DNA of 64,000 nt, from assembly GCF_013122565.1 (NCBI RefSeq), contig NZ_CP053258.1, one strand, 5' to 3'. This DNA comes from Escherichia coli. Its GTDB lineage: Bacteria > Pseudomonadota > Gammaproteobacteria > Enterobacterales > Enterobacteriaceae. Below, piece after piece: positions 24,435-52,178 of the stretch; within the stretch, counting starts at the first letter, position 1, and each line of letters begins with the position of its first letter. The translations under genes and the position numbers were made by a program. A model generated the notes under the pieces. It was not told the origin of the DNA and ran no database searches. It saw only the letters and a list, made by a program, of their open reading frames with translations.

Positions 24435-24440
24435 GCCATT

Positions 24441-26432: not shown

Positions 26433-26441
26433 GAGGTTATT

Positions 26442-28339: not shown

Positions 28340-28380
28340 CGCTGGATTACTGATTTTTGTTCGAGTCTGGTATCGAAACT

Positions 28381-29324: not shown

Positions 29325-29800
29325 ATATTCGCCGTAAAAACCGCTTGTGGATTGCCTGTGCTGTGTTGGCAGGGCTGGCGCTGACTATCGGTCTGGTGCT
29401 GTATGCGCTGCGCTCGAATATCGATCTCTTTTATACGCCGGGGGAGATTCTCTACGGCAAGCGTGAAACTCAGCAGATGCCGGAAGTCGGTCAGCGTCTG
29501 CGCGTTGGCGGGATGGTGATGCCGGGTAGCGTGCAGCGCGATCCCAATTCGCTGAAAGTAACGTTCACCATTTACGATGCTGAAGGCTCAGTGGATGTCT
29601 CTTACGAAGGCATTTTGCCGGATCTGTTCCGTGAAGGGCAGGGCGTTGTGGTGCAGGGCGAGCTGGAAAAAGGCAATCATATCCTCGCGAAAGAAGTGCT
29701 GGCGAAACATGATGAAAACTACACGCCGCCAGAAGTTGAGAAAGCGATGGAAGCTAACCACCGTCGCCCGGCGAGTGTTTATAAGGACCCAGCATCATGA
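29321..29800 (+). CDS. ccmE: heme chaperone CcmE, 159 aa
   Basis: 159-aa ORF, N-terminal anchor. Confidence 0.94.
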
Positions 29801-32294: not shown

Positions 32295-33343
32295 GGTTTT
32301 TATTGGGCGTGCTGATGCTGATGATCTCCGGCTCAGCGCTGGCGACCATCGACGTGTTGCAGTTTAAAGATGAAGCACAGGAACAACAGTTCCGTCAGCT
32401 CACTGAAGAACTGCGCTGCCCGAAATGCCAGAACAACAGCATTGCCGATTCCAACTCGATGATTGCCACCGACCTGCGCCAGAAAGTGTATGAACTGATG
32501 CAGGAAGGTAAAAGTAAAAAAGAGATTGTCGATTATATGGTGGCGCGTTACGGCAACTTCGTCACTTACGATCCGCCGTTAACGCCGCTGACCGTATTGC
32601 TGTGGGTGCTGCCAGTAGTGGCTATTGGCATTGGCGGTTGGGTCATATACGCCCGCTCGCGGCGTCGGGTACGCGTGGTGCCGGAAGCGTTTCCTGAACA
32701 AAGCGTGCTGGAAGGTAAGCGTGCCGGATATGTTGTTTATCTGCCGGGTATTGTGGTGGCGTTAATTGTGGCTGGCGTCAGCTACTACCAGACTGGCAAT
32801 TATCAGCAGGTGAAAATCTGGCAGCAGGCCACGGCACAGGCTCCGGCGTTGCTGGACAGGGCGCTGGATCCGAAAGCTGATCCGCTCAACGAAGAAGAGA
32901 TGTCGCGCCTTGCGCTGGGGATGCGTACTCAACTGCAAAAAAATCCGGGAGATATAGACGGCTGGATTATGTTGGGCCGCGTTGGCATGGCGCTGGGTAA
33001 CGCCAGTATTGCCACCGATGCATACGCTACTGCATATCGCCTCGATCCGAAGAACAGTGATGCTGCACTGGGTTACGCTGAAGCGTTGACACGTTCATCT
33101 GATCCCAACGACAACCGCCTGGGGGGTGAACTACTACGCCAGTTGGTGAGAACGGACCATAGCAATATCCGTGTGTTAAGCATGTATGCGTTTAATGCCT
33201 TTGAGCAGCAGCGATTTGGCGAAGCCGTTGCCGCGTGGGAGATGATGTTGAAACTCTTACCTGCCAACGATACTCGCCGTGCTGTGATTGAACGTAGTAT
33301 CGCGCAGGCGATGCAACATTTGTCGCCGCAGGAGAGTAAATAA
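32291..33343 (+). CDS. ccmH: cytochrome c heme lyase subunit CcmH, 350 aa
   Basis: N-terminal LRCPKC motif, C-terminal TPR-like region. Confidence 0.94.
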   Translation: MRFLLGVLMLMISGSALATIDVLQFKDEAQEQQFRQLTEELRCPKCQNNSIADSNSMIATDLRQKVYELMQEGKSKKEIVDYMVARYGNFVTYDPPLTPLTVLLWVLPVVAIGIGGWVIYARSRRRVRVVPEAFPEQSVLEGKRAGYVVYLPGIVVALIVAGVSYYQTGNYQQVKIWQQATAQAPALLDRALDPKADPLNEEEMSRLALGMRTQLQKNPGDIDGWIMLGRVGMALGNASIATDAYATAYRLDPKNSDAALGYAEALTRSSDPNDNRLGGELLRQLVRTDHSNIRVLSMYAFNAFEQQRFGEAVAAWEMMLKLLPANDTRRAVIERSIAQAMQHLSPQESK

Positions 33344-33380
33344 AAAGTGGCCCGATGGTGATTCCATCGGGCTATTTTTA
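33344..33380. terminator. bidirectional intrinsic terminator between ccmH and narP (gcccgatgg...ccatcgggc flanked by A-run/T-run)
   Basis: hairpin with flanking aaaaa / ttttt. Confidence 0.8.
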
Positions 33381-34025
33381 TTGTGCCCCGCGTTGTTGCA
33401 GGAACAGAATGGTGGCCGCCACGCGTGAGCGGACATTGAGTTTACGCAGCAGATTGCGAATATGTACTTTTACTGTCTGCTCGGAAATATTCAACACCGA
33501 GGCAATTTGTTTATTTGACAGCCCCTGTGCCAGCTCGTGCAGAACATCCAGCTCGCGCTCCGTCAGCACGCTGAAGGGATCTTCTTCCGCGCCAAACATT
33601 TCACGTTCACGCAAGTACTGATTGACGCGTTCGCTAAAGACTTTGCTGCCTTTCGCTCCGGCACGAATCGCTTCCAGCAACACTTCCGGGTCGCTGTCTT
33701 TCAACAGATAACCGTCTGCGCCTGCGTCTATCAGCGCAAAGACATCGCTGGAGGCATCTGATACGGTCAGGATAATAATTTGCGCGGTAACGCCATCCCT
33801 GCGCAAGGCATTGAGGGTATCCAGGCCACTCATACCTTTCATATTGAGATCCAGCAAGATCACGTCGATATCCAGTCTATTCGCCAGATCGATAGCACTC
33901 GCGCCGTCGCCTGCTTCGGCGACCACTTCAAAGCCAGGATCAAGCTCCAGTAACTGACGAACACCGCGTCGCATAAGTGGATGATCATCCACAATCATCA
34001 CCTGAAAAGGCGTTGCTTCAGGCAT
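33378..34025 (-). CDS. narP: nitrate/nitrite response regulator NarP, 215 aa
   Basis: MPEATPFQVMIVDDHPLMRRG receiver domain, LuxR HTH C-terminus; start trimmed from track ORF. Confidence 0.95.
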   Translation of the reverse strand: MPEATPFQVMIVDDHPLMRRGVRQLLELDPGFEVVAEAGDGASAIDLANRLDIDVILLDLNMKGMSGLDTLNALRRDGVTAQIIILTVSDASSDVFALIDAGADGYLLKDSDPEVLLEAIRAGAKGSKVFSERVNQYLREREMFGAEEDPFSVLTERELDVLHELAQGLSNKQIASVLNISEQTVKVHIRNLLRKLNVRSRVAATILFLQQRGAQ

Positions 34026-34344: not shown

Positions 34345-36936
34345 ATGCATCAATCTGGTTCTGTTTCTCTTTGTCGTTCCGCAATATCTGTTCTGGTGGC
34401 TACAGCGTTATATTCACCCATAGCATTGGCATCAACAGTTGAGTATGGTGAGACAGTTGATGGTGTTGTCCTGGAAAAAGATATCCAGCTGGTTTATGGG
34501 ACCGCCAATAATACGAAAATCAATCCTGGCGGAGAACAGCATATTAAAGAATTTGGTATAAGTAGTAATACTGAAATTAACGGCGGGTATCAGTACATTG
34601 AAATGAATGGCACCGCAGAATACTCCGTATTAAATGATGGTTATCAAATTGTTCAAATGGGTGGCGCGGCAAACCAGACTACCCTCAATAATGGTGTGCT
34701 ACAGGTTTATGGCGCAGCGAATGATCCCACGATTAAAGGCGGGCGCTTAATCGTTGAAAAAGATGGGATTACCGTCCTTGCCGCTATCGAAAAGGGAGGA
34801 TTACTGGAGGTTAAAGAGGGGGGGTTAGCGATTGCGGTAGATCAGAAAGCCGGCGGTGCTATTAAAACAACCACGCGGGCCATGGAGGTATTCGGAACAA
34901 ACCGTCTCGGTCAGTTCGATATCAAGAATGGTATTGCTAACAATATGCTGTTGGAAAACGGCGGAAGTTTGCGAGTTGAAGAAAATGACTTCGCTTATAA
35001 TACTACTGTAGATAGTGGCGGCTTACTGGAGGTTATGGATGGCGGGACTGCAACTGGCGTTGATAAAAAAGCAGGCGGAAAATTAATTGTCTCAACGAAT
35101 GCGCTGGAAGTGAGTGGTACAAACAGTAAAGGCCAATTTAGTATAAAAGATGGTGTGTCAAAAAATTATGAACTGGACGATGGTTCCGGGCTCATTGTTA
35201 TGGAGGACACGCAGGCCATTGATACTATCCTTGATGAGCATGCCACTATGCAATCGCTGGGAAAGGATACTGGTACGAGAGTGCAGGCAAATGCGGTATA
35301 TGATCTGGGTCGATCAGATCAGAATGGAAGTATCACGTATTCCTCTAAAGCCATCTCTGAAAATATGGTTATCAACAATGGCCGCGCTAATGTCTGGGCA
35401 GGCACAATGGTTAACGTTTCAGTCAGAGGGAATGATGGCATTCTTGAGGTCATGAAGCCGCAAATAAATTATGCACCCGCTATGTTGGTGGGTAGTGTCG
35501 TGGTTTCTGAGGGCGCTTCTTTAAGAACGCATGGTGCCGTGGATACCAGCAAAGCGGATGTTTCGCTCGAAAATAGCTCATGGACCATCATTGCCGATAT
35601 CACTACGACGAACCAAAACACCCGCCTCAATTTAGCCAACCTTGCGATGTCTGGCGCAAATGTGATTATGATGGATGAGCCAGTGACTCGTTCATCTGTG
35701 ACGGCAAGTGCGGAAAATTTCACTACGTTGACCACCAATACCCTGTCGGGAAACGGCAATTTTTATATGCGTACCGATATGGCTAATCATCAGAGCGATC
35801 AGCTCAACGTCACCGGACAGGCAACAGGTGATTTCAAAATATTCGTGACGGACACCGGTGCCAGCCCGGCAGCAGGAGATAGCCTTACACTGGTAACAAC
35901 GGGCGGCGGTGATGCTGCATTTACGTTGGGCAATGCCGGAGGCGTTGTTGATATCGGTACGTATGAATATACCTTGCTGGATAATGGCAATCATAGCTGG
36001 AGTCTGGCAGAGAATCGCGCGCAAATTACCCCTTCAACCACTGATGTGCTAAATATGGCGGCAGCACAACCGCTGGTATTTGATGCAGAACTGGACACCG
36101 TGCGTGAGCGTCTTGGTAGCGTAAAAGGCGTTAGTTACGATACGGCGATGTGGAGTTCGGCAATTAACACCCGCAACAACGTGACCACTGATGCGGGCGC
36201 TGGTTTTGAGCAAACATTGACGGGCCTGACGCTCGGTATCGATAGCCGTTTCTCCCGTGAAGAAAGCAGTACAATTCGCGGCTTGTTCTTTGGTTACTCT
36301 CATTCTGATATTGGTTTTGATCGCGGCGGCAAAGGCAATGTCGATAGCTATACCCTGGGTGCTTATGCCGGTTGGGAGCATCAGAACGGTGCCTATGTTG
36401 ATGGGGTGGTGAAAGTTGACCGTTTTGCCAACACCATCCATGGCAAGATGAGTAATGGGGCAACAGCGTTTGGCGATTACAATAGTAACGGCGCGGGTGC
36501 TCATGTTGAGAGCGGGTTCCGTTGGGTTGACGGATTGTGGAGTGTTAGACCCTATCTGGCCTTTACCGGCTTTACCACAGATGGTCAGGACTACACGTTA
36601 TCAAACGGCATGCGCGCGGACGTGGGAAATACCCGGATATTACGCGCTGAAGCGGGAACGGCGGTAAGCTATCACATGGACCTGCAAAACGGTACGACGC
36701 TGGAACCCTGGCTGAAAGCCGCCGTGCGTCAGGAATACGCCGATTCTAACCAGGTGAAAGTTAATGACGATGGCAAATTTAATAATGATGTGGCTGGAAC
36801 CAGTGGCGTTTATCAGGCTGGGATAAGGTCATCGTTTACCCCGACGTTAAGCGGTCATTTGTCAGTCAGCTATGGCAATGGCGCAGGGGTAGAATCACCG
36901 TGGAATACTCAGGCGGGTGTGGTCTGGTCGTTCTGA
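34345..36936 (+). CDS. yejO: autotransporter adhesin-like protein YejO, intact 863 aa
   Basis: N-terminal signal peptide, repetitive passenger, C-terminal beta-barrel ending VVWSF; adjacent to tRNA-Pro as yejO is. Confidence 0.85.
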   Translation: MHQSGSVSLCRSAISVLVATALYSPIALASTVEYGETVDGVVLEKDIQLVYGTANNTKINPGGEQHIKEFGISSNTEINGGYQYIEMNGTAEYSVLNDGYQIVQMGGAANQTTLNNGVLQVYGAANDPTIKGGRLIVEKDGITVLAAIEKGGLLEVKEGGLAIAVDQKAGGAIKTTTRAMEVFGTNRLGQFDIKNGIANNMLLENGGSLRVEENDFAYNTTVDSGGLLEVMDGGTATGVDKKAGGKLIVSTNALEVSGTNSKGQFSIKDGVSKNYELDDGSGLIVMEDTQAIDTILDEHATMQSLGKDTGTRVQANAVYDLGRSDQNGSITYSSKAISENMVINNGRANVWAGTMVNVSVRGNDGILEVMKPQINYAPAMLVGSVVVSEGASLRTHGAVDTSKADVSLENSSWTIIADITTTNQNTRLNLANLAMSGANVIMMDEPVTRSSVTASAENFTTLTTNTLSGNGNFYMRTDMANHQSDQLNVTGQATGDFKIFVTDTGASPAAGDSLTLVTTGGGDAAFTLGNAGGVVDIGTYEYTLLDNGNHSWSLAENRAQITPSTTDVLNMAAAQPLVFDAELDTVRERLGSVKGVSYDTAMWSSAINTRNNVTTDAGAGFEQTLTGLTLGIDSRFSREESSTIRGLFFGYSHSDIGFDRGGKGNVDSYTLGAYAGWEHQNGAYVDGVVKVDRFANTIHGKMSNGATAFGDYNSNGAGAHVESGFRWVDGLWSVRPYLAFTGFTTDGQDYTLSNGMRADVGNTRILRAEAGTAVSYHMDLQNGTTLEPWLKAAVRQEYADSNQVKVNDDGKFNNDVAGTSGVYQAGIRSSFTPTLSGHLSVSYGNGAGVESPWNTQAGVVWSF

Positions 36937-36995
36937 TAACAGAAAATAAACAGGCTGTGATGTGTCGCGGTCTGTTTATCGAATTAAATGCAGAT

Positions 36996-37030
36996 ATAAA
37001 AAAACCAACCGTAAAGGTTGGTTTTTTTTG
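36996..37030. terminator. intrinsic terminator (ccaaccgtaaaggttgg + T8) shared by yejO and the convergent tRNA
   Basis: hairpin followed by tttttttt, preceded by A-run. Confidence 0.85.
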
Positions 37031-37037
37031 GGATTTT

Positions 37038-37114
37038 TGGTCGGCACGAGAGGATTTGAACCTCCGACCCCCGACACCCCATGACGGTGCGCTACCAGGC
37101 TGCGCTACGTGCCG
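37038..37114 (-). tRNA. proL: tRNA-Pro (GGG anticodon), 77 nt including CCA
   Basis: reverse complement reads CGGCACGTAGCGCAGCCTGGTAGCGCACCGTCATGGGGTGTCGGGGGTCGGAGGTTCAAATCCTCTCGTGCCGACCA. Confidence 0.93.
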
Positions 37115-39377: not shown

Positions 39378-40385
39378 ATGAGTCTGGATATCAACCAGAT
39401 TGCTCTGCACCAGCTTATCAAGCGTGATGAGCAGAACCTTGAGCTGGTGTTGCGCGATTCATTGCTGGAACCGACAGAAACCGTCGTTGAGATGGTGGCA
39501 GAACTGCATCGGGTCTATAGCGCCAAAAATAAAGCTTACGGCTTGTTTAGCGAAGAGAGTGAACTGGCGCAGACGCTGCGCTTACAGCGTCAGGGCGAAG
39601 AGGACTTTCTGGCATTTAGCCGCGCGGCAACCGGTCGCCTGCGTGACGAATTAGCGAAATATCCTTTTGCTGACGGTGGATTCGTGCTGTTTTGCCACTA
39701 CCGTTATCTGGCGGTGGAGTATCTGCTGGTGGCAGTCCTGAGCAACCTGAGCAGTATGCGCGTTAACGAAAATCTCGACATCAACCCAACCCATTATCTT
39801 GATATCAATCATGCGGATATTGTTGCGCGTATCGATTTAACCGAATGGGAAACCAATCCAGAGTCGACCCGCTATCTCACTTTCCTGAAAGGGCGAGTAG
39901 GGCGCAAAGTGGCGGATTTCTTTATGGATTTCCTCGGGGCCAGCGAAGGGTTAAACGCGAAAGCGCAAAACCGTGGGCTGTTGCAAGCGGTTGATGATTT
40001 CACTGCCGAAGCACAACTGGATAAAGCAGAGCGACAGAACGTGCGCCAGCAGGTTTATAGCTACTGTAATGAGCAGCTGCAGGCAGGCGAAGAGATTGAA
40101 CTGGAGTCGCTGTCGAAAGAGCTGGCAGGCGTCAGCGAAGTGAGCTTCACGGAGTTTGCGGCTGAAAAAGGCTACGAACTGGAAGAGAGCTTCCCGGCAG
40201 ACCGTAGCACACTGCGTCAGTTGACGAAGTTTGCCGGTAGCGGCGGTGGCTTGACTATTAACTTTGATGCGATGCTGTTAGGTGAACGCATCTTCTGGGA
40301 TCCGGCGACCGATACCCTGACCATTAAAGGCACGCCGCCGAATTTGCGCGACCAATTGCAGCGCCGGACGTCTGGTGGGAACTAA
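39378..40385 (+). CDS. yejK: nucleoid-associated protein YejK (NdpA), 335 aa
   Basis: 335-aa [22 protein letters not shown]. Confidence 0.94.
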
Positions 40386-40765
40386 ATCTCCAACGCGAAT
40401 GTTTCTTTTCGGAGAAACAGTTGCGGGATAATCACAATTCTTGTCAATCAGTTAGTGAGATGACTTGCTGATTGACCTTTCATTCGAAAATGTTTTCTCT
40501 GTTATTATACTTAGTGTTACTGAAAATATTATTCTCTTATCCCCTTTATTCGATAATAAATCGGTCTGGTCACTATTTCCGCCGTTTTTTGTGAGCTGTA
40601 ACACTGGAAAAATCATTCTGTTTAATTATATTGAGTTTACTTGGCGTTATATGTTGTTATTTGCTTTGACTATATAAAATGCAAATGTATTCTTAATGTC
40701 AATATTATTGTCGTTATGTTTGACTCATTATATTAATCGTATGAATAGTTTTAAGGATTCACCGC

Positions 40766-41338
40766 ATGGAGCAAGAAAATCCTGAAGATAGAAAGTGTTG
40801 TCGACCGAAAAAAACGTTCTCTTTAACCAGAAAATTACTGGTATGTTTTATCTTTACCCTCATTGTATTCAGTGGTTGTTTATTTGTCGTTATGAACACG
40901 GTCATTCATAACACCAGCACTGACAGCTTTTGCCTGGGTTGTCATGAAATGAAAGACAACATCCTTACCGAGAGTTTCAAAAAATCCATTCATGGCAGTA
41001 ATCGTACTGGCGTGAAAGTCGCTTGTGCCGATTGCCATATTCCTGATGAATTTGTCCCTAAGATGATCAGAAAAGCCCACGCCGTTAAAGAGGTTTGGGG
41101 GCATATGACAGGCGTAATTGATACGGCCGATAAATTCGATGCACATCGTGGCGAAATGGCAAAAGCGGAATGGGCAAGAATGAAAGCAAACAATTCGCAG
41201 GAATGCAGAGACTGCCACGATATTTCTAAATTACAGAAAAAATTTATGGCGCCGTTCCATGAGGCTTCTCTTAAAGAAGGGAAAACATGCATTGATTGTC
41301 ATGCCGGCATTGCACATAAATTACCAGCAGTTCATTAG
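40766..41338 (+). CDS. NapC/NirT/CymA-family membrane-anchored tetraheme cytochrome c (putative quinol dehydrogenase), 190 aa; NapC paralog
   Basis: N-terminal TM helix (LLVCFIFTLIVFSGCLFVV), four CxxCH (CLGCH, CADCH, CRDCH, CIDCH); shares blocks VPKMIRK, NNSQECR-CH, TCIDCH-GIAHKLP with the napC in this window. Confidence 0.85.
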   Translation: MEQENPEDRKCCRPKKTFSLTRKLLVCFIFTLIVFSGCLFVVMNTVIHNTSTDSFCLGCHEMKDNILTESFKKSIHGSNRTGVKVACADCHIPDEFVPKMIRKAHAVKEVWGHMTGVIDTADKFDAHRGEMAKAEWARMKANNSQECRDCHDISKLQKKFMAPFHEASLKEGKTCIDCHAGIAHKLPAVH

Positions 41339-41431
41339 TCATTAATACATGAATGTCATGTCTGTCTGGTTTCAAATAAAAACAAGAAGGGTTTCATGTT
41401 GATTTAAGTTTTTATGTAAAAGGACCATGTT

Positions 41432-43072
41432 ATGAGGAAACTAAAAAGGGGATTCTTATTGGCTGGGGTATTAACGGCACTTTCTCTAAGCGCTTATGCT
41501 GACAGAAATATGAATAAGATCCCGCATATCAATCTGTCGAATCCATCCGTCGAACCAGTTAGTGAGAGAATAATCCAAACAGATATTGTTGTTATTGGCG
41601 GTGGGCTTTCTGGCATGTCCGCAGGGTTGACTGCAGTACAGGGCGGAGCCAAAGTTGTTATTTTTGAAAAACTACCAAGCCTTGGAGGGGCAGGCGTTTA
41701 TCCTGAAGGCAGTTTAGGCATTGGCACCCTTATGCAAAAAAAAGAGGGGAAAGGTGCCACGCTGAATCAAGCCTTTGGTAAGGCGATCGATTTCCATCAC
41801 TGGCGAGCCAATGCTAGTGCATTGCACGCATTAATGAAAAACTCAGGCGAAACCATTGATTGGGTTGCCAGTAATGGCGTTGAGTTTACGACCTTAAAAA
41901 CCACCATTTATCCTCAGTCAGATTCATTATGGACCTGGCATATGTATAAGCATAATGGTGCATCTGTTACTAAAAGCTTTTACAAGAAGATCCTTGATGG
42001 AGGTGGGCAAATCTACACCGAAACTCCTGTTAAGAAGATTCTTCGCGACAAACAAAGCGGTGATGTCGTTGGCGTCGAAGCGGTTAATAGCGTAACAGGG
42101 GAAAAAATCATTGCCTATGGTAAGGGTGTGATTGTGGCGACCGGTGGTTTTGCCAACAACCGTGACATGATTGAAAAATACATCACCGATGTGAATCAGA
42201 AAAACATGGTGCCGGTCAAACTACGTGGCCCCCTGATTGATGGACGCGAAGGCGATGGTATCAAAATGGGGCAAGACATTGGCGCTGATACTGCCGGGAT
42301 GCAAACCATTGCTGGCAATAGCCCATATGTCGATCAAGACCCTCCTATCCGTCAGTTTAATGGCGCGGATTACCAAAAACAGGCCAGAACGTCATTAAGC
42401 CAGCCATTCCTGTGGATTAACCGACAAGGCGAGCGTTTCTTTGATGAGTCACTCGGTTCCAGTTTTACCCTCGTTTATAACGCTATCACCATGAATGGCG
42501 GAGTCATGTATTCTGTCTGGGATGATGCAATGCGCCAGAAGATGGTTAACGAAGGGCCGGTTACACCGTTTAACGCCATCGTGTTGCCTGGGCAGCCGAT
42601 GAAGGCGCTGGATCAGGCGATCGAAATCGGCATGAAAGAAGGGTGGTTATTTAAAGGTGAAACGTTGGACGATCTGGCAAAACAGATCAATGTTCCTGCA
42701 GACAATCTGAAAGCGACGATTGCGAAAGTAAACAAGTATACGGATGAAGGTTTCGATCCTGACTGGGGGCGCAAGAAAGAGCATCTGTTTAAATTTCAGG
42801 ATAAAGGACCGTATTACGCCGTGAAAGGTATTCGGGCTTATTTCCTGACGCTGGGTGGTTTGAAAATGAACAGCGATCTGCAGGTCTACGATACCAATGA
42901 GAAGATTATCCCAGGTCTGTATGTTGTCGGGCAGGATATGGGCGGTCTGTATGACAGCTCCTATGATTTGGTACTTGAAGGATCGGCTTCTGGCTTTGCG
43001 TTGACGTCGGGACGTATGGCAGCGAAACATATTATAAGCACCAGAGTGCAGGCACAGGGAGGAGGCAAATGA
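41432..43072 (+). CDS. exported FAD-dependent flavoprotein of the fumarate-reductase/succinate-dehydrogenase flavoprotein (FAD_binding_2) type, 546 aa; substrate unknown
   Basis: N-terminal signal peptide MRKLKRGFLLAGVLTALSLSAYA; dinucleotide fold DIVVIGGGLSGMSAGLTA...EKLPSLGGAG; C-terminal GLYVVGQDMGG; no CxxCH. Confidence 0.8.
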   Translation: MRKLKRGFLLAGVLTALSLSAYADRNMNKIPHINLSNPSVEPVSERIIQTDIVVIGGGLSGMSAGLTAVQGGAKVVIFEKLPSLGGAGVYPEGSLGIGTLMQKKEGKGATLNQAFGKAIDFHHWRANASALHALMKNSGETIDWVASNGVEFTTLKTTIYPQSDSLWTWHMYKHNGASVTKSFYKKILDGGGQIYTETPVKKILRDKQSGDVVGVEAVNSVTGEKIIAYGKGVIVATGGFANNRDMIEKYITDVNQKNMVPVKLRGPLIDGREGDGIKMGQDIGADTAGMQTIAGNSPYVDQDPPIRQFNGADYQKQARTSLSQPFLWINRQGERFFDESLGSSFTLVYNAITMNGGVMYSVWDDAMRQKMVNEGPVTPFNAIVLPGQPMKALDQAIEIGMKEGWLFKGETLDDLAKQINVPADNLKATIAKVNKYTDEGFDPDWGRKKEHLFKFQDKGPYYAVKGIRAYFLTLGGLKMNSDLQVYDTNEKIIPGLYVVGQDMGGLYDSSYDLVLEGSASGFALTSGRMAAKHIISTRVQAQGGGK

Positions 43073-43479
43073 GTAAGCTATTGAAGAACATTGTCACAAT
43101 CATTCTTGCTGGCGTAATGTGCACCGTTATCGGTATGGTTTCTGCCAGTGCACAAGAGATTGTCGGCATGAAAATGCACAAGACCATTGGTCTGGAATGT
43201 AATAACTGCCATGTTGATGATGTTAAAGCCAACAAGAATATGACGCCAACGTGCGTTAGCTGCCATGCGCCTGGTGAGCGTTATTATCATGGTAAGAAGG
43301 ATTCAGAAGGTAACTCAGTGTTAAAAGAGTATCCGGAGTCGGGTAAAACACGAGTTGCGTCTTTCCATGACTCTCATGGCGGGGAAATTCGCTGTACGGT
43401 ATGCCATACGTCACATGAGAAGGAACCACAGCCACTCTATTGCAACAACTGCCATCAGTTTGATGTGAAGATTAAGTAG
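43069..43479 (+). CDS. small periplasmic tetraheme cytochrome c, 136 aa
   Basis: signal peptide, four CxxCH (CNNCH, CVSCH, CTVCH, CNNCH) in ~110 mature residues; ATGA overlap with upstream flavoprotein gene. Confidence 0.85.
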   Translation: MSKLLKNIVTIILAGVMCTVIGMVSASAQEIVGMKMHKTIGLECNNCHVDDVKANKNMTPTCVSCHAPGERYYHGKKDSEGNSVLKEYPESGKTRVASFHDSHGGEIRCTVCHTSHEKEPQPLYCNNCHQFDVKIK

Positions 43480-43501
43480 TGAAGGTATTTGTCAGTCGCT
43501 G

Positions 43502-43540
43502 AAAAAGAAAACGGCCCGTAAAGGCCGTTTTCTTTTGTTC
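43502..43540. terminator. intrinsic terminator (aaacggcccgtaaaggccgttt + T-run) between the island operon and convergent rplY
   Basis: GC hairpin flanked by gaaaaagaaa and ttcttttg. Confidence 0.85.
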
Positions 43541-43554
43541 AACTTATTCAGCAA

Positions 43555-43947
<393 letters not shown>

Positions 43948-43963
43948 TCAATCAAAACTACCA

Positions 43964-45724
43964 TTAACCGCGTAATTCGTGCGCCCGACGAAAACGACCT
44001 TCGTAATCGAACACTTTTTCACGCACTTGCCAGTACTGACCTTTCATGCGGGCGACGACAAAATCCGGGTGTCGCAATAAGGCTTGCTGGGCGAGGATAT
44101 CGGCGGCGGTTATCCAGCGCAGAGGGATGCCCGGTGTGCGCGTATGCGGGCGGATAAAAAGCTGCTCGAAGGCGGTACGCTGGGCGGGCGTTTGCAGACG
44201 GAAACGCTCACTCACATCCGCGCCGTCTTCATCGTAATAGGTGATTTTCAACCATTCGCCTTTCTCGTCGTGCCCATGTTGCAAAGACATGCCGCTACAG
44301 CGTAATACCAGCGCATCTTTCAGTCGTAGCGCCGCTTTTAACATATCGTCCGGATCAACCAGTACGGTGTCACATTCGCGGCAGCGTCGGGCGGCAATAT
44401 CATTTTCTGCGTTACATTGCGGGCAATTTTTAAAACGGAAACGGAAGTCACATTGTTCGCGATGACCGTCGTCATCTTCAAACCATCCCTGACAGCGGCG
44501 ACCAAAGTGTTCAATCAATGTCCCGTCGGCGGTCGTTTTCCCCCAAAAGGTGTTGGCAAAACCGCAGGCAGGGCAGAAAACCTGTACCGGAACGTTGTCA
44601 CTTTTGCCTTTCGGTGTACCAACTTCCGGTGCGTAGAGATCGTGAGGGTTACCCGCATAATCAAGAATTAAGCAATCAGTCTTGCCGGGGGCCAGACGCA
44701 GACCGCGCCCGACAATTTGTTGGTAAAGACTCACTGATTCGGTAGGGCGCAGAATGGCGATAAGATCGACGTGCGGGGCGTCAAATCCGGTGGTCAGTAC
44801 TGCGACGTTGACAAGATAGCGAAAACGCTGGGCTTTAAAATCTTCAATTAACACATCGCGCTCAGCGCCGGGGGTGTCGCCAGTAATCAGTGCAGCATCT
44901 TCGGCGGGTAGTAATCCCACAATCTCTTTTGCGTGTTCAACGGTGGCGGCGAAAATCATCACCCCTTTGCGCGTTGCAGCAAACTCCATAATCTGGCTAA
45001 TGATGTGCGGGGTAATACGTTGTTGTTTTTTTATCTCGCGGTTGAGATCGGCTTCGCTGAACAGCCCGTTACTCTGTGCCTGCAAGCGGCTGAAATCGTA
45101 TTGCACTACTGGCATATCCAGTCGTTCTGGCGGCGTCAGATAGCCGTGTTTAATCATATAACGCAGCGGCAGCTCATAAATGCAGTCACGGAAAAGGGCT
45201 TTCTCATCGCCGCGTACCATGCCGTGATAATGGAACTGGTAGATCCAGCCTTTGCCCAGTCGAAAAGGCGTGGCAGTCAGCCCCAGCAGGCGTAAGTGGG
45301 GATTCACTTTTGTCAGGTGAGTGAGGATTTGCTGATACTGGCTCTCTTCATCGTCACCAATACGGTGACATTCATCGACAATCAACAGCGAAAATTCACC
45401 CTGAAAGGCATCAAGATTACGGGCGACCGACTGCACGCTGCCAAATACCACTTTACCGTGGCTCTCTTTGCGCTTTAGCCCGGCGGCAAAAATATCGGCT
45501 TCCAGCCCCAGCGCCTGATATTTTGCATGGTTTTGCGCCACCAGTTCTTTAACGTGTGCCAGCACCAGCACGCGACCACGAGCCAGCCGCGCAAGTTCCG
45601 CTATCACCAGGCTTTTACCTGCACCGGTGGGCAGCACGATAACGGCAGGGGTTTTATGACGACGAAAATGGTTGAGCGTGGCATCCACGGCTTCTTGCTG
45701 ATATGGGCGAAGTGTAAAAATCAT
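43964..45724 (-). CDS. radD: putative ATP-dependent helicase RadD (YejH), 586 aa
   Basis: Walker [13 protein letters not shown] box, C-terminal Zn-finger Cys pairs. Confidence 0.93.
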
Positions 45725-45873
45725 GGTCTCGCGTAGGTAGATTATTCTGCTAATAGTATGCCACGGATCTTTTTCCCTTGAGGGATGTTGTTAGACCGCT
45801 ATACTGGGCAGACAACAGTTCAGATTTTCGGGTCATTACCCGACCTCCGTTTTTTACAGGCAAAATCACACAC

Positions 45874-46569
45874 ATGCGACTTGATAAATTTATCGCACAG
45901 CAACTCGGCGTTAGCCGTGCTATTGCCGGGCGTGAAATCCGCGGCAATCGTGTCACCGTCGATGGCGAAATCGTTCGTAATGCAGCGTTCAAACTGCTTC
46001 CTGAACATGATGTCGCTTACGATGGCAACCCGCTGGCGCAGCAACACGGGCCACGTTACTTCATGCTCAATAAGCCTCAGGGCTATGTTTGCTCCACGGA
46101 CGACCCTGATCACCCAACGGTGCTCTATTTTCTGGATGAACCGGTAGCCTGGAAACTGCACGCCGCAGGACGTCTGGATATCGATACCACCGGTCTGGTG
46201 CTGATGACTGATGATGGTCAGTGGTCGCACCGCATTACTTCTCCGCGCCATCATTGCGAGAAGACCTATCTGGTGACGCTGGAATCACCCGTAGCTGACG
46301 ATACGGCAGAGCAATTTGCTAAAGGCGTGCAGCTGCATAACGAAAAAGATCTCACTAAGCCGGCGGTGCTGGAAGTGATTACCCCAACGCAGGTTCGTCT
46401 GACCATCAGCGAAGGGCGTTATCATCAGGTGAAACGCATGTTCGCCGCCGTGGGTAACCATGTGGTTGAGCTGCATCGTGAACGTATTGGCGGCATTACG
46501 CTGGATGCTGATTTAGCCCCCGGTGAATATCGTCCGTTAACTGAAGAAGAAATTGCCAGCGTCGTCTAA
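45874..46569 (+). CDS. rsuA: 16S rRNA pseudouridine(516) synthase RsuA, 231 aa
   Basis: [23 protein letters not shown]4 domain; start trimmed from track ORF. Confidence 0.93.
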
Positions 46570-46596
46570 CTTTTCAATGACTTTCAGGAGCCCGTT

Positions 46597-47787
46597 GTGA
46601 CCACCCGACAGCATTCGTCGTTTGCTATTGTTTTTATCCTTGGCCTGCTGGCCATGTTGATGCCGCTGTCGATTGATATGTATCTGCCCGCGCTACCGGT
46701 AATTTCAGCGCAGTTTGGCGTACCGGCGGGCAGTACGCAGATGACCCTCAGTACTTATATTCTGGGCTTTGCGTTGGGGCAGTTAATCTACGGGCCGATG
46801 GCAGACAGCTTCGGACGTAAGCCGGTGGTTCTTGGCGGTACGCTGGTGTTTGCCGCCGCCGCGGTGGCGTGTGCGTTGGCACAAACCATCGATCAGCTGA
46901 TTGTGATGCGTTTCTTCCACGGGCTGGCGGCGGCTGCGGCCAGCGTGGTTATCAACGCCTTGATGCGTGATATCTACCCGAAAGAAGAGTTCTCGCGGAT
47001 GATGTCGTTTGTCATGCTGGTGACAACCATTGCACCGCTGATGGCACCGATAGTTGGCGGCTGGGTGCTGGTGTGGCTGAGCTGGCATTACATCTTCTGG
47101 ATCCTCGCCGTGGCGGCGATTCTGGCTTCGGCAATGATCTTCTTTCTGATCAAAGAAACCTTACCACCGGAGCGTCGCCAGCCTTTTCACATTCGTACCA
47201 CTATTGGTAACTTTGCGGCGCTGTTCCGTCATAAGCGTGTCCTGAGTTATATGCTGGCCAGCGGTTTCAGCTTTGCCGGAATGTTCTCGTTCCTGAGCGC
47301 CGGACCGTTTGTCTACATTGAAATCAACCACGTTGCACCGGAAAACTTTGGTTATTACTTTGCGCTAAACATTGTTTTTCTGTTCGTGATGACCATCTTT
47401 AACAGCCGCTTTGTTCGCCGCATTGGCGCGTTAAATATGTTCCGCTCGGGGTTGTGGATACAGTTTATTATGGCGGCGTGGATGGTCATCAGTGCGCTGC
47501 TGGGGCTGGGATTCTGGTCGCTGGTGGTTGGCGTTGCGGCGTTTGTAGGCTGCGTGTCGATGGTGTCATCCAATGCGATGGCGGTCATTCTTGATGAGTT
47601 TCCCCATATGGCGGGAACGGCATCTTCGCTGGCAGGAACCTTCCGTTTTGGCATAGGGGCAATTGTTGGCGCATTGCTTTCTCTTGCGACCTTTAACTCT
47701 GCATGGCCGATGATTTGGTCAATTGCATTCTGCGCAACCAGCTCCATTCTCTTCTGTCTGTACGCCAGTCGACCGAAAAAACGGTGA
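46597..47787 (+). CDS. bcr: MFS efflux transporter Bcr (bicyclomycin/multidrug), 396 aa
   Basis: 396-aa 12-TM ORF, GTG start, immediately after rsuA. Confidence 0.93.
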
Positions 47788-47799
47788 TCTATTGCACAA

Positions 47800-47827
47800 C
47801 GAGGAAGCTAAAAGGCTTCCTTTGTTG
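47800..47827 (+). terminator. intrinsic terminator after bcr (ggaagctaaaaggcttcc + tttgtt)
   Basis: hairpin plus T-rich tail. Confidence 0.7.
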
Positions 47828-48119
47828 ATGCATGTCAACCACAAATCCATCATTCCCCCGATATATGTTTATTTTATGTAAAATCAATTTATGTAAAAAG
47901 TCACATCATTGTAGTTAAAAAGGTTGAGTTAGATCGCAGAAACGGGTACATATAGCCCCGCAAACGTGACCACGCCCGCAGATATTACTTAAATCAGAGC
48001 CATAGAGGCCACGCAGGCGAGGCATCAATCTTTACGATCTGTATAAAGACGGATTGTTGATGATGTGTTAAAATTGATGTAAACAAATTGTGAAGTAAAT
48101 GTGCTTCCGGGGAAAATAA

Positions 48120-48464
48120 GTGACTTCATTACAACTCTCAATCGTCCATCGTCTACCGCAGAACTTTCGCTGGTCTGCTGGTTTCGCAGGTTCGAAGGTT
48201 GAACCGATTCCGCAAAATGGACCGTGCGGTGACAACAGCCTGGTGGCGCTTAAATTGCTTAGCCCGGATGGTGATAATGCATGGTCGGTGATGTACAAAC
48301 TAAGCCAGGCGTTAAGCGACATCGAAGTTCCATGTTCGGTGCTGGAGTGTGAAGGTGAGCCGTGCCTGTTTGTAAATCGCCAGGACGAGTTTGCTGCAAC
48401 ATGCCGATTGAAAAATTTTGGTGTGGCAATTGCCGAACCCTTTTCAAACTACAATCCTTTTTAA
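48120..48464 (+). CDS. yejG: uncharacterized protein YejG, 114 aa
   Basis: 114-aa ORF (GTG start) between bcr and yejF. Confidence 0.85.
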
Positions 48465-48467
48465 GCG

Positions 48468-50057
48468 TCAGCTCAACGCCAGTAGCTGACGCGTATACTC
48501 CTGCTGCGGTGCGGCAAACACGCGCGCGCACGGTCCTTGTTCCACTACTTCCCCTTGTCGCAGTACGATAACCTGATGACATAACGCGCGGACAACGTGC
48601 AAATCGTGGCTGATAAACAAATAGGCCAGTTGATGCTTTTGTTGCAATGATTTCAATAGCGTCAATATTTGCGCCTGTACCGTTTTGTCGAGTGATGATG
48701 TCGGTTCATCAAGTATGATCAGCGAGGGCTTAAGAATTAATGCCCTGGCAATCGCAATACGTTGTCGCTGACCACCAGAGAACTCCGCCGGATAACGGTG
48801 GCGTGTTTCAGGATCTAATCCCACTTCATGCATCACGGCTATCACTTGTTGTTCGCGTTGTGCGGCAGAAAGCGTCGGCTGGTGAACCCGTAAGCCTTCC
48901 TCAATAATTTGCAAAACGTTGAGTCGTGGGTTGAGCGAGGAGTTTGGATCCTGAAATACCACCTGAATGCGATGACGAATAGGTAACAGCTGGCGGCGAT
49001 TTAAATTTTGCAGTGGCTGACCGTCAAAGATGATGCTGCCCTGAGAATTAATCAGTCGCAGCAGCGCCAGTCCCGTCGTGCTTTTCCCGGAACCGGACTC
49101 GCCCACTAAACCCAGTGTTTCACCCGCTCGTAGCGTAAAACTGATGTTTTTCACCACCACATTATGATCCACAATGCGCTTCAAAATCCCTTTGCGAATG
49201 GGGAAGGCAACCTGAAGCTGTTCAACATCCAGCAACGTTGAGGCAGGTTCTGGCAACGGCACCGGGTCGCCTGACGGTTCACTGTTGAGTAGCTTTTGTG
49301 TGTAAGGATGAGTGGGTGAGGCAAATAGCGTAGCGGCGTTATTTTGCTCGACACAGCGACCGTTTTGCATTACCGCCACGCGGTGGGCCAGTTTTCTGAC
49401 AATGCTGAGGTTATGAGTAATAAACAGCATGCCCATATTCAGCTCGCCTTGCAGTTCGCGCAACAGCTGTAAAATCTGCGCCTGGACAGAGACGTCCAGT
49501 GCGGTGGTCGGTTCATCGGCAATTAATAATTCCGGTCGCGTTAACAGCGCCATCGCAATCATCACCCGCTGGCGTTCGCCGCCGGAGAGCTGATGCGGAT
49601 AATCTGTCAGCCGTTTTGCCGCCTGGCGGATACCGACGCGATCAAGGCAGTTAAGAATTTCGCCACGAGCCGCTTCCCGACGCATCCCGCGGTGGAGTGA
49701 AAGCACTTCATAAAGCTGTTTTTCCAGGGTATGCAATGGATTTAATGACACCATCGGCTCCTGAAAAATCATGGCGATCTTATTACCGCGTACACCGCGC
49801 AACGTTTGATCGCTGGCATGAAGCAGCGATTCGCCATGAAAACGAATATCGCCGGAGAGATATTCAACCGGCGGGGAAGGGAGCAGGCGTAAAATTGACA
49901 GCGCGGTAACGCTTTTGCCTGAACCTGACTCACCCACCAGCGCCAGCGTTTCGCCAGCCTCAATCTGTAGTGAAACATCATTGACTACTGTACGTACGGT
50001 TTGCTGATGGCGAAAACCCACCGACAAATTTTCAATCGCTAACAGAGTTTGCGTCAT
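48468..50057 (-). CDS. yejF: ABC transporter ATP-binding protein YejF (double ATPase; microcin C / peptide uptake), 529 aa
   Basis: two Walker A motifs (GESGSGKS x2), start at [13 protein letters not shown]. Confidence 0.93.
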
Positions 50058-50058
50058 G

Positions 50059-51084
50059 CTACACCGCCTTATTAGGATCAAATGCGTCGCGGACGGCTTC
50101 ACCAATAAAGATCAGCAAAGACAATAATATTGCCACCGACAAGAAGGCGGTGATCCCAAGCCACGGAGCCTGAAGGTTATTTTTCCCTTGTAACAGCAGT
50201 TCACCGAGTGACGGCGAACCGAGCGGAAGACCGAAGCCGAGGAAATCGAGCGAGGTCAGGGTGGTGATCGAACTACATAAAATAAACGGTAAAAAAGTGA
50301 GGGTAGCGACCATGGCATTTGGCAACATATGACGCAGGATGATACTGCGATCGCTGACGCCAAGCGCCTGCGCCGCGCGGATGTAGTCGAAATTACGGGT
50401 ACGTAAAAACTCCGCCCGCACCACGCCGACCAGACTCATCCAGCCAAACAAGACAGTAATTGCCAGCAGCCACCAGAAGTTAGGCTGTACGACGCTGGAA
50501 AGTAAAATAATCAAAAACAGCGTCGGCATCCCCGACCATACTTCAATAAAGCGTTGCCCCCAGAGATCGACTTTACCGCCGTAATAGCCTTGTAGCGCCC
50601 CCGCCAGCACGCCCATCACGCTGGAACAGAGAGTCAGCATCAGGCCAAACAGAACCGAGATCCGCGTGCCATAGAGAATACGTGCCAGCACATCGCCGCC
50701 GTTGGCATCCGTTCCCAGCCAGTTTTGCTGGGAAGGTGGGGAAGGGAAGGGCTTATCGGTAGCAAAGTTGATACTGGTAGCACCAAAGCGAATCGGTGCC
50801 CACAGTACCCAGCCGTTATTTTCCAGCCGTTGTTTCAGCCACGGATCCTGATAATCAGCCTGACTTGCCAGAGGGCCGCCAAAATCGCTTTCGCTGTAGT
50901 TTTTCAACAACGGGAAATACCAACTGCCGTCATAACGCACCAGCAACGGTTTATCGTTGGCGATAAGTTCAGAACACAAACTCAAACCAAACAAAACGAG
51001 GAAAATCCATAACGACCAGTAGCCGCGACGATTATGACGAAAACGCGCCCAACGGGCCTGATTGACGGGGCTGAGTCGCGACAT
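50059..51084 (-). CDS. yejE: ABC transporter permease YejE, 341 aa
   Basis: polytopic permease ORF, stop 1 nt from yejF start. Confidence 0.93.
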   Translation of the reverse strand: MSRLSPVNQARWARFRHNRRGYWSLWIFLVLFGLSLCSELIANDKPLLVRYDGSWYFPLLKNYSESDFGGPLASQADYQDPWLKQRLENNGWVLWAPIRFGATSINFATDKPFPSPPSQQNWLGTDANGGDVLARILYGTRISVLFGLMLTLCSSVMGVLAGALQGYYGGKVDLWGQRFIEVWSGMPTLFLIILLSSVVQPNFWWLLAITVLFGWMSLVGVVRAEFLRTRNFDYIRAAQALGVSDRSIILRHMLPNAMVATLTFLPFILCSSITTLTSLDFLGFGLPLGSPSLGELLLQGKNNLQAPWLGITAFLSVAILLSLLIFIGEAVRDAFDPNKAV

Positions 51085-52178
51085 TAACGTCCCTCAAAAT
51101 CTATACGCGGATCGACCAGCGTATAGCTGATATCACTGACAATATTCAGCAGCAGGCCAATCAGGGTGAAAATATACAAGGTACCAAACATTACAGGATA
51201 ATCGCGCGAGACGGTCGCTTCGTAGCCCAGTAAGCCAAGGCCATTGAGTGAAAACATCACCTCAATCAGCAGCGAGCCGGTAAAAAACATGCTGATAAAC
51301 GTCGCCGGAAAACCGGCAATCACCAGCAGCATGGCGTTGCGGAACACATGTTTCCAGAGAATATTTTTTTCACTCACCCCTTTCGCACGCGCGGTCACCA
51401 CGTATTGCTTGCGCACTTCATCAAGGAATGAGTTTTTGGTCAGCATGGTCAGCGCCGCAAAGCCACCAATCACTGTCGCCAGCACCGGCAGCGTGATATG
51501 CCACAGATAATCGGTGATTTTCTGATACCACGGCAGCGAATCAAAGTTAGCGGAAACCAGGCCGCGTAGAGGGAACAGGTCGAAATAGCTGCCGCCCGCG
51601 AAGAAGACAATCAGCAGGATGGCAAACAAAAAGGCCGGAATGGCGTAGCCGATGATGATAAATGCGCTACTCCAGACGTCAAAGCGGCTCCCATTATAAA
51701 CAGCTTTGCGAATGCCTAACGGAATCGACACCAGATAGATAATCAGCGTGCTCCACAATCCGAGGGTGATGGAAACCGGCAGACTGTCTTTAATCAGCGT
51801 CAGCACCGAGGCGCTGCGAAACAGGCTATCACCAAAATCAAAGCGGATGTAGTCCCAGAGCATTTTGAAGTAACGTTCGTGGATCGGCTTATCGAAACCG
51901 TAGCGATGAGTGATCTCAGCGATCACTTCTGGATCTAATCCGCGTCCACCACGGTAATTACTGTCGCTGATATTGCCGACACCCGTTTGCGCATGGCTGG
52001 CACGAACACCTTCACCGCCTGCGCCGGGTAATACTCCGGCATTACCAAACTCAATGGCGGCGATGGCCTGATCGACCGGACCGCCAGGCGCAATTTGCAC
52101 GATGAAAAAGTTGATAGTGATAATCGCCCATAACGTTGGGATCACCAGCAACAGACGGCGAATCAGGTAAGCGCCCAT
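51084..52178 (-). CDS. yejB: ABC transporter permease YejB, 364 aa
   Basis: polytopic permease ORF overlapping yejE start. Confidence 0.93.

Follow-up and report, generated by a model that had tools for sequence, protein, structure and literature searches.

Between yejK and rplY in a 64,000-nucleotide stretch of Escherichia coli DNA (assembly GCF_013122565.1, contig NZ_CP053258.1; the whole stretch is called the window below) lies an island that carries a three-gene operon for a membrane-anchored tetraheme cytochrome of the NapC/NirT family, an exported flavin adenine dinucleotide (FAD) protein and a small tetraheme cytochrome c. With moderate confidence, we interpret the operon as a quinol-driven, three-component periplasmic reductase of an activated alkene that is not fumarate. 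The label 'fumarate reductase', which such genes carry in public annotation, is almost certainly wrong, as judged from alignments and profile scores; by the same evidence the flavoprotein falls in a different, uncharacterised clade, recognized in this analysis, that is Arg-less at the catalytic positions, Sec-exported and similar to the vinylphenol reductase VprA. The island itself is an old trait of the Escherichia lineage, retained by E. albertii and a small number of other lineages. Its presence on an E. coli-like backbone is new; the locus as a marker for E. albertii and the closest architectural precedents for the operon were already known.

Organization of the operon

The operon and its immediate surroundings are arranged as follows.

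39378-40385, yejK, the left flank, whose stop codon ends at 40385
40386-40765, plus strand, AT-rich leader or regulatory region of 380 bp
40766-41338, plus strand, NapC/NirT-type membrane-anchored tetraheme cytochrome c of 190 aa, the presumed quinol dehydrogenase
41432-43072, plus strand, exported FAD_binding_2 flavoprotein of 546 aa, the presumed catalytic subunit
43069-43479, plus strand, periplasmic tetraheme cytochrome c of 136 aa
43503-43536, bidirectional intrinsic terminator between the small-cytochrome gene and the convergent rplY
43555-43839, rplY, the right flank, convergent to the operon, with its 3' end at 43555

All three open reading frames (ORFs) are intact and have ribosome-binding sites. 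The NapC-like and flavoprotein genes are separated by 93 bp, the stop and start codons of the flavoprotein and small-cytochrome genes overlap in an ATGA at 43069-43072, and one terminator serves the three genes. Its hairpin has perfect 14-bp arms and a 6-nt loop and faces both the operon and rplY; the 75-nt terminator segment has a minimum free energy of -24.4 kcal/mol (z = -3.85), and none of 200 shuffled sequences was equally stable. The G+C content is 31.5% in the 400-bp composition window covering the leader, as against 50-55% in the flanks. A scan of the island and leader with Rfam gave no family near its gathering score.

The initial annotation of this DNA, made from the sequence alone, had described an AT-rich leader of ~380 bp, three same-strand genes and a strong terminator, with translational coupling at the ATGA. 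The ORF, composition and folding data agree with the former and the sequence at 43069-43072 with the latter. The protein identities also held in searches with hidden Markov models: the 190-aa protein matches PF03264 Cytochrom_NNT (5.5e-57, model positions 7-173 of 174), the 546-aa protein PF00890 FAD_binding_2 (1.4e-43) and the 136-aa protein PF14537 Cytochrom_c3_2 (1e-12), all of them well outside what chance would give. The span had been given as 40386-43545; its left edge stands and its right edge does not, as sequence shared with E. coli starts again at 43541 and the island is thus 40386-43540.

The two cytochromes

The NapC-like protein contains the CxxCH motifs CLGCH, CADCH, CRDCH and CIDCH and a hydrophobic segment at approximately residues 23-45. 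It scores under the NCBIfam cut-offs (TIGR02161, 206.7 against 310.6 bits; NF007906, 199.4 against 349) and is 47% identical to the NapC encoded in the same window (26442-27044). By its PF03264 match it is assigned to the NapC/NirT family; by these curated cut-offs it is not an orthologue of NapC, the partner of nitrate reductase. Proteins of its kind form a small separate clade, found only beside this flavoprotein in Enterobacterales, the next matches being ordinary NapC at ~50%. For flavoprotein-cytochrome pairs from beyond the Enterobacterales, the examined flanks contained no detected gene of the NapC type.

The 136-aa protein, with the motifs CNNCH, CVSCH, CTVCH and CNNCH, aligns to the N-terminal heme domain of the flavocytochrome c3 Ifc3 (1qo8, residues 14-88, E 1.1e-6). 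A homologue of this small cytochrome is encoded directly downstream of most flavoprotein relatives that bear a signal peptide and of none of the cytoplasmic ones; the gene pair is adjacent in Escherichia, Citrobacter, Budvicia, Deferribacterales, Seleniivibrio, Geomonas, Telmatospirillum, Xanthobacteraceae, Parasutterella and Turicimonas. The linkage of a Sec-type signal peptide to an adjacent tetraheme gene argues that the flavoprotein and the cytochrome work together. A porin gene adjoins the homologues in Parasutterella (by family match) and in Turicimonas and Geomonas (by N-terminal resemblance only), which fits a periplasmic substrate taken up from outside.

Other neighbours of the homologues can be noted here. 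A Seleniivibrio metagenome-assembled genome (MAG) has two paralogous flavoprotein-tetraheme pairs within 5 kb (locus L011, 5923-7892 and 10895-12841), the flavoproteins being 32% identical by comparison with the query; beside these pairs there are, by translation only, a 1047-aa ORF resembling a sigma-54-dependent sensor-regulator, a porin-like ORF and an ORF like those of the major facilitator superfamily. The neighbours of cytoplasmic relatives at ~52% identity (in Syntrophus, Syntrophorhabdus and Deltaproteobacteria MAGs) are unrelated between loci and give no clue to a pathway. Those in Budvicia and Citrobacter include no substrate-generating enzyme; AraC-like and LysR-like regulators and an ATP-binding cassette (ABC) transporter are present by translation only.

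The flavoprotein and its active site

The best-scoring curated model for the flavoprotein is that of VprA (NF053717), on which it reaches 311.7 bits over positions 7-479 of 481; the equivalog cut-off, 600, is about twice that score. With TIGR01813, the model for flavocytochrome c, it scores 172.8 bits against a cut-off of 285.45. Six other members of the family, both cytoplasmic and periplasmic, give 287-374 bits with the VprA model and 170-204 with TIGR01813; as a control, a genuine fused flavocytochrome c from Parasutterella gives 171 and 486.5 bits, respectively. An AlphaFold2 model of the protein (predicted local distance difference test score 84.6, predicted template modelling (TM) score 0.83) was matched by Foldseek to urocanate reductase UrdA (6t85/6t86), Fcc3 (1qjd/1d4d, E ~1e-33), KstD and cyclohexanone dehydrogenase. 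Sequence identity to Fcc3-type enzymes is 22-26%.

Pairwise and profile alignments to Fcc3 and UrdA gave the following equivalences for active-site residues.

Fcc3 Arg402 (catalytic) corresponds to Ser343
Fcc3 His504 corresponds to Phe471
Fcc3 Arg545 (UrdA Arg560) corresponds to Tyr511/Asp512 or to Val514, depending on the alignment, and never to Arg
Fcc3 His365 corresponds to Asn296 or Asp303 (ambiguous)
Fcc3 Arg381 corresponds to Arg319 and is kept

None of 34 signal-peptide-bearing homologues departs from Phe471, Tyr511 or Asp512, and Ser343 and Arg319 each occur in at least 90% of them. On these alignments, both the fumarate-type catalytic arginine and the His/Arg carboxylate clamp are absent. 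The initial annotation had likened the architecture to Shewanella chains with reductases of the FccA/UrdA type; given Ser343, Phe471, the lack of an arginine at the Arg545 position, a TIGR01813 score below cut-off and the higher score with VprA, that likeness does not extend to the active site.

The signal peptide MRKLKRGFLLAGVLTALSLSAYA is of the Sec type, and the N-terminus, MRKLKRGFLLAG, is without RR. No twin-arginine motif was found in a signal-peptide context among close relatives, although more distant relatives in Sutterella and Duodenibacillus do have RR. The wider family occurs in three forms: a cytoplasmic one, in Desulfobacter, Syntrophus and Syntrophorhabdus; one exported by twin-arginine translocation (Tat) with no adjacent cytochrome gene, in Sutterella and Duodenibacillus; and a Sec-exported one with the small cytochrome gene immediately downstream. 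Residues 24-50 (41501-41580) form a conserved mature N-terminal extension, DRNMNxxPxINxxNP...TSE, which is restricted to the nearest relatives (~56-98% identity) and modelled with low confidence; it might dock the cytochrome subunit.

Taken together, the active-site changes, the TIGR01813 score and the Sec signal make fumarate a very unlikely substrate and weaken the case for urocanate and acrylate. It is on this ground that we regard as extremely improbable the idea that the operon encodes a periplasmic fumarate reductase, a split version of Shewanella Fcc3, as the public annotation 'fumarate reductase flavoprotein subunit' implies. The PF00890 fold and the place of Fcc3 among the best solved-structure matches would be expected of such an enzyme, and both JGI and Ooka et al. 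annotate it so. Yet the residues with which Fcc3 binds and protonates fumarate (His365, Arg402, His504 and Arg545) have no equivalent here, the residues in their places vary little or not at all across the family, the TIGR01813 score is far from that of the true flavocytochrome c, and the hosts already have FrdABCD.

Proposed electron transfer and substrate

In the scheme that we favour, the NapC-like membrane cytochrome would oxidise menaquinol or demethylmenaquinol and deliver electrons to the soluble 136-aa cytochrome, which corresponds to the heme domain at the N-terminus of flavocytochrome c3 from Shewanella. The small cytochrome would in turn reduce the FAD of the flavoprotein, into which the cofactor would have been inserted in the periplasm after Sec export. 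Hydride would then pass from N5 of the reduced FAD to the beta-carbon of an activated C=C bond in a small periplasmic organic molecule, with a proton supplied by a non-canonical residue, for which the invariant candidates are Lys316, Tyr299, Tyr461/462 and Tyr511/Asp512. Quinol oxidation by NapC-type proteins is not electrogenic, and energy conservation would depend on the enzymes of the donor side. System I (Ccm) is needed in trans to attach the operon's eight hemes. The operon structure and the chain from quinol through the membrane and soluble tetrahemes to the flavoprotein had already been proposed in the initial annotation and are supported here. The analysis shows which genes are present, their domains, their synteny, the purifying selection on them and, by alignment, the substitutions in the active site; we infer, rather than observe, which way the electrons flow, that they come from quinol, what class of substrate is used, the periplasmic insertion of FAD and control by a regulator of the CRP/FNR family.

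The substrate is not assignable from sequence. Little et al. (bioRxiv 2022.12.26.521950) found likewise, for the reductases of gut bacteria, that sequence does not predict substrate; in their work, reductase clades that lack both arginines and have a tyrosine at the Arg545 equivalent reduce cinnamates, and the cinnamate reductase CirB also reduces resveratrol. Our best guess is an activated alkene or enoate with aromatic or hydrophobic character, in the class of cinnamates, vinylphenols and stilbenes, whereas urocanate, acrylate and other small enoates held by a carboxylate clamp are disfavoured. A narrower version, in which the operon would be a quinol-linked periplasmic respiratory reductase of a non-carboxylate alkene, such as 4-vinylphenol, 4-vinylcatechol, 4-vinylguaiacol or a stilbene, is in our estimation unlikely.

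It might be supposed instead that the enzyme reduces a small 2-enoate (acrylate, methacrylate, crotonate or urocanate) in the manner of ArdAB, Mrd/Mcc or UrdA, since the operon has the two-subunit layout of ArdAB and Mrd/Mcc, which reduce acrylate and methacrylate, together with a presumed quinol dehydrogenase. We think this quite unlikely. ArdA keeps the residues that bind the C4 carboxylate, but the clamp and the catalytic arginine are absent here; ArdA, Mrd and homologues have a Tat signal and the present protein one of the Sec type; Mrd is 35-38% identical to Fcc3-type enzymes, the present flavoprotein only 22-26% with a higher VprA score; and no dddY or hut-type partner genes are nearby.

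The reaction might also run in reverse, with a periplasmic dehydrogenase like KstD or cyclohexanone dehydrogenase sending electrons through the two cytochromes into the quinone pool. The Foldseek TM scores to 3-ketosteroid and cyclohexanone dehydrogenases are as high as to Fcc3, a tyrosine stands where the KstD group uses one, the arginine typical of reductases as proton donor is absent, and some NapC/NirT proteins are quinone reductases. On the other hand, all characterised periplasmic pairs of flavoprotein and tetraheme cytochrome c are reductases, low-potential c3-type tetrahemes suit the delivery of electrons from menaquinol, the nearest named model, VprA, is a reductase, and Arg-less clades are proven reductases. 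The dehydrogenase is, in our view, an improbable reading, and we retain the quinol-driven alkene reductase.

Several points nevertheless weigh against that reductase. The active-site mapping consists of sequence and profile alignments at 22-26% identity, with an ambiguous equivalent for His365, and the fold also resembles the C-C desaturating KstD and cyclohexanone dehydrogenase, the catalytic direction not being fixed by sequence. In a Foldseek search of AFDB50, all close clusters were unnamed 'FAD-binding protein' and none was characterised. The genomic contexts of the homologues are heterogeneous, and the Escherichia island is without a regulator, transporter or substrate-generating enzyme of its own. 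The CRP-like match in the leader, described below, is not above chance, such matches not being enriched in the window, and the leader has no match to the FNR consensus with two or fewer mismatches. Finally, after Sec export the FAD has to be acquired in the periplasm, a process established in Shewanella (FccA and UrdA) and not in Escherichia.

Comparison with known systems

In the split reductases FccAB(C), ArdAB and Mrd/Mcc, as here, adjacent genes encode a heme-free flavoprotein and a small multiheme cytochrome, both of which are exported; for ArdAB and Mrd/Mcc, reductases of this split kind have been demonstrated by experiment. The Wolinella succinogenes FccABC system is like the present one in that a single operon encodes the same three kinds of protein as separate polypeptides, in a different gene order. 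It is said to have been described by Simon et al. in 1998, and reportedly has methacrylate reductase activity and an FccC of the NapC/NirT type. Its FccA groups with Mrd/Fcc3-type sequences, whereas the flavoprotein here belongs to the VprA-like clade. W. succinogenes FccA has 515 aa, a Tat signal (RRDLIK) and 35% identity to Mrd, and its four-heme subunit has 146 aa (PMC4427408). ArdA and all listed heme-free Mrd homologues, W. succinogenes FccA included (PMC4427408), have a Tat signal, in contrast to the Sec-type signal here.

Shewanella woodyi ArdAB consists of a flavin subunit and a tetraheme c subunit, both of which are required; it is periplasmic and anaerobically induced (bioRxiv 2024.02.11.579808). 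According to the same study, ArdA is linked to dddY, is Tat-exported and keeps the C4-carboxylate-binding residues except for His and Thr, in whose place it has Gly and Tyr. The present operon differs in that the whole clamp and the catalytic arginine are gone, export is by Sec, no neighbour generates a substrate and there is a dedicated NapC-like gene. The Mrd/Mcc operon of Geobacter sulfurreducens AM-1 likewise encodes a periplasmic flavoprotein and a multiheme cytochrome c, and its homologues in Deltaproteobacteria and Deferribacteres have been transferred together (PMC4427408). Mrd has the Tat signal RRDFLK and Mcc has 231 aa and 4-7 heme sites, compared with a Sec signal and 136 aa here; Mrd/Mcc has no known carrier from quinol to Mcc, a part that the NapC-like gene of our operon would encode.

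In Shewanella, the NapC/NirT-type quinol dehydrogenase CymA feeds the Sec-exported periplasmic FAD reductases FccA and UrdA, an arrangement similar to the one proposed here. The heme domain is fused in FccA, UrdA contains an FMN (flavin mononucleotide) domain, and both use a two-arginine mechanism, whereas here the small cytochrome is separate and the arginines appear to be absent. CymA, moreover, serves many pathways and is not operon-linked, unlike the NapC-like gene. The chain of CymA, small tetraheme cytochrome and FccA, to which the initial annotation compared the operon, thus stands as a looser parallel; the split W. succinogenes FccABC, S. woodyi ArdAB and G. sulfurreducens Mrd/Mcc are better precedents.

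We know of no cytochrome partner for VprA of Lactiplantibacillus plantarum, to which the flavoprotein is likened by profile score. VprA comes from a Gram-positive host and has the regulator VprR (PMC10295242). Clades 2-4 of Little et al. (CirA, CirC and CrdD; bioRxiv 2022.12.26.521950), in which both arginines are absent and a tyrosine is at the Arg545 equivalent, can be likened to the present protein by description. The hosts of those gut-bacterial reductases have large reductase arsenals, none of them described with an operon of NapC and tetraheme genes; the family of the present flavoprotein has members in Sutterellaceae and Eggerthella.

Distribution, age and maintenance of the island

No part of 40386-43545 has a megablast or blastn match among 5,426 complete E. 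coli genomes, of which 5,425 contain yejK; in an E. coli strain with an empty site, the spacer between yejK and rplY is 138 bp and has a different terminator. The initial annotation was therefore right that the genes are absent from a K-12-like backbone, but the insertion is not a private one. Between yejK and rplY, E. albertii (loci L003 and L007), Escherichia sp. MOD1-EC7003 (L006) and Citrobacter sp. Cu233 (L010) carry these three genes too, so that the island is a syntenic one between yejK and yejH (radD). The order in E. albertii and MOD1-EC7003 is yejK, NapC-like gene, flavoprotein gene, small-cytochrome gene, rplY, radD. In Citrobacter sp. Cu233, a 579-aa ORF (L010, 8170-9909), by translation only like a fused permease/ATPase ABC transporter, stands between the small-cytochrome gene and rplY; it is in no other examined copy of the island. 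Budvicia aquatica has the three genes at another genomic location. RefSeq holds the exact proteins under the names 'NapC/NirT family cytochrome c', 'FAD-dependent oxidoreductase' and 'cytochrome c3 family protein', with carriers among E. coli, E. albertii and several unclassified Escherichia strains, the last with near-identical proteins. In the E. albertii island (EACBF2102-2104), protein identity to the present operon is 98% for the flavoprotein, 90% for the small cytochrome and 86% for the NapC-like protein. Nucleotide identities are as follows.

E. albertii, island genes 82-88%, flanks ~89-91%
MOD1-EC7003, island genes ~89-91%, flanks ~95%
Citrobacter sp. Cu233, island genes 77-79%, flanks 79-84%

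Island and flanks rank the lineages alike in divergence, and the island is the more diverged in each comparison; the nearest sampled copy is only ~90% identical. No integrase, insertion sequence (IS) element, tRNA target or flanking direct repeats were found at the island. The left flank is E. coli-like up to ~85 nt before the yejK stop codon, and on the right the sequence does not differ from E. coli from 43541 onward. At the 3' end of yejK (40300-40385), within its last ~85 nt and beside the island, are six of the eight differences from E. coli; several of these six single-nucleotide polymorphisms (SNPs) match alleles of MOD1-EC7003 or E. albertii, in a pattern like that of a recombination junction.

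These data fit either retention of an ancestral island or its import by homologous recombination from an unsampled Escherichia lineage. That the island is instead a recently acquired mobile element, and not an old chromosomal locus, is in our judgement highly unlikely. Its G+C content is below that of the flanks, and the E. coli-like sequence close to both edges and the donor-like SNPs in yejK are compatible with homologous-recombination import. Against recent mobility stand the absence of the mobility features sought, the shared position in E. albertii, MOD1-EC7003 and Citrobacter, a divergence that rises with that of the flanks in the same lineage order, and the lack of any sampled donor above ~90%.

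The ratio of nonsynonymous to synonymous divergence (dN/dS) is 0.016-0.017 for the flavoprotein gene and 0.020-0.025 for the small-cytochrome gene, at dS 0.55-1.8. The operon genes are under strong purifying selection and are clearly maintained. It is accordingly difficult to see the operon as a silent or decaying relic without function in the present host, and we give that idea very little credence. It would be in keeping with AT-rich DNA that is likely, from its G+C content, to be silenced by H-NS, with the absence of the island from every one of the complete E. coli genomes and with some truncated E. albertii database entries of 79-312 aa; but none of the three ORFs is disrupted, ribosome-binding sites and a stop-start overlap are present, the dN/dS values hold across lineages at dS > 0.5, and the leader contains a conserved regulatory block.

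The leader and possible regulation

Between Escherichia lineages the leader is poorly conserved (66-74% nucleotide identity) except for discrete blocks. The best conserved of these, TTTGTGAnnTGnAACACnnGAAA, hardly varies between the window, MOD1-EC7003, E. albertii and Citrobacter. The elements of interest are these.

40443-40476, plus strand, hairpin with 14-nt arms and a 6-nt loop, 86% complementary and terminator-like in a scan
40590-40605, plus strand, TGTGA-N6-ACACT, a site like those of the CRP/FNR family, inside TTTGTGAnnTGnAACACnnGAAA, with 2 mismatches to the CRP consensus
40605-40632, plus strand, predicted promoter-like sequence with -35 TGGAAA, a 16-nt spacer and -10 TATATT (9/12 matches in a consensus scan)

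The arms of the hairpin, GTCAATCAG and CTGATTG, are conserved in the Escherichia copies; it is probably the terminator of yejK and possibly an operator. The centre of TGTGA-N6-ACACT is at approximately -41.5 from the start expected for a -10 element at 40627-40632, a spacing that would be the geometry of a class II promoter of the CRP/FNR family. This assignment is suggested by the conservation and position of the site and not by its match score.

Regulators beside the homologues vary. A divergent Crp/Fnr-family regulator is found in Deferribacterales, Geomonas and a gammaproteobacterial contig, and at one more locus by N-terminal resemblance only; other homologues have a sigma-54 sensor-activator (by translation only) or a MocR-like regulator. 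The latter, with GntR and aminotransferase-fold parts, lies beside the gene pair in Deferribacterales (L005, 12047-13426), Parasutterella (L030, 9050-10492) and Turicimonas (L033, 9062-10498). Speculatively, the MocR-like neighbours and the invariant Asp512 at a formerly carboxylate-binding position could hint at an inducer or substrate that bears an amine.

The host and the rest of the window

The genes flanking the island are 95-100% identical to those of E. coli FDAARGOS_943, and the host backbone is 98.8-99.2% identical to the nearest complete E. coli. Over a 7.9-kb core of the right flank (43556-51500), the best identity to any complete E. coli genome is 98.8%, so the host is an E. coli-like outlier whose lineage is poorly represented among finished genomes. 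Also within the window are the following.

13506-14561, apbE
21204-27044, nap operon
27057-33343, plus strand, ccmABCDEFGH cytochrome c maturation operon, ~7 kb upstream of the island and 97-99% identical in nucleotides to annotated E. coli ccm genes
33378-34025, narP

The gap between ccmH and narP (33343-33378) is ~34 bp here, as against ~210 bp in E. coli FDAARGOS_943; the region is collinear apart from this small indel. The autotransporter gene yejO (34345-36936) is apparently uninterrupted, its 5' and 3' parts meeting at 35398/35399, whereas yejO of E. coli FDAARGOS_943 is split by IS2 and annotated as a pseudogene. Only ~100 bp separate yejO from the tRNA-Pro gene proL here (36936-37114); the reference E. 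coli has ~13 kb of phage-like and IS21 DNA between the two, and the proL site of the present host is therefore unoccupied.

The island as a diagnostic marker

Ooka et al. 2015 (PMC4700944) used the yejK-yejH island of E. albertii as an E. albertii-specific target for nested PCR; there it is a marker only, labelled fumarate reductase, and its function was not analysed. When the literature was searched for work on what the operon does in E. albertii, or on any reductase of the FAD_binding_2 type linked to NapC in Enterobacterales, that paper alone came up. The primers map to the window as follows.

41101-41122, E_al_OR, 1 mismatch
41143-41161, E_al_NR, 1 mismatch
41843-41862, E_al_NF, 3 mismatches
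41914-41935, minus strand, E_al_OF, 0 mismatches

The product predicted for the outer pair, calculated from the primer positions, is ~835 bp, spanning 41101-41935. The island is not specific to E. albertii, being present also in the E. coli-like host, MOD1-EC7003 and Citrobacter sp. Cu233, and the near-perfect outer-primer sites on an E. coli backbone mean that false positives are possible in the E. albertii nested PCR.

Implications

The clade to which the flavoprotein is assigned is widespread, in Enterobacterales, Sutterellaceae, Deferribacterales, Geobacterales and syntrophic Deltaproteobacteria, and appears to be without the textbook two-arginine mechanism. If the vinylphenol or stilbene version of our proposal were true, the operon would give Proteobacteria a cytochrome-coupled equivalent of the reaction of Lactobacillus VprA and would add a Gram-negative source of gut ethylphenols; breakdown products of plant phenolics would be respiratory acceptors for E. 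albertii and related Escherichia; and a Sec-exported enzyme with an Arg-less, Tyr/Asp active site would represent a new mechanistic class of periplasmic flavocytochrome. E. albertii, easily grown and genetically near E. coli, would be a convenient model in which to discover the substrate. Few conserved metabolic differences set E. albertii and related Escherichia lineages apart from mainstream E. coli; the island is one of them, and an extra electron acceptor could help to explain the differences in their niches.

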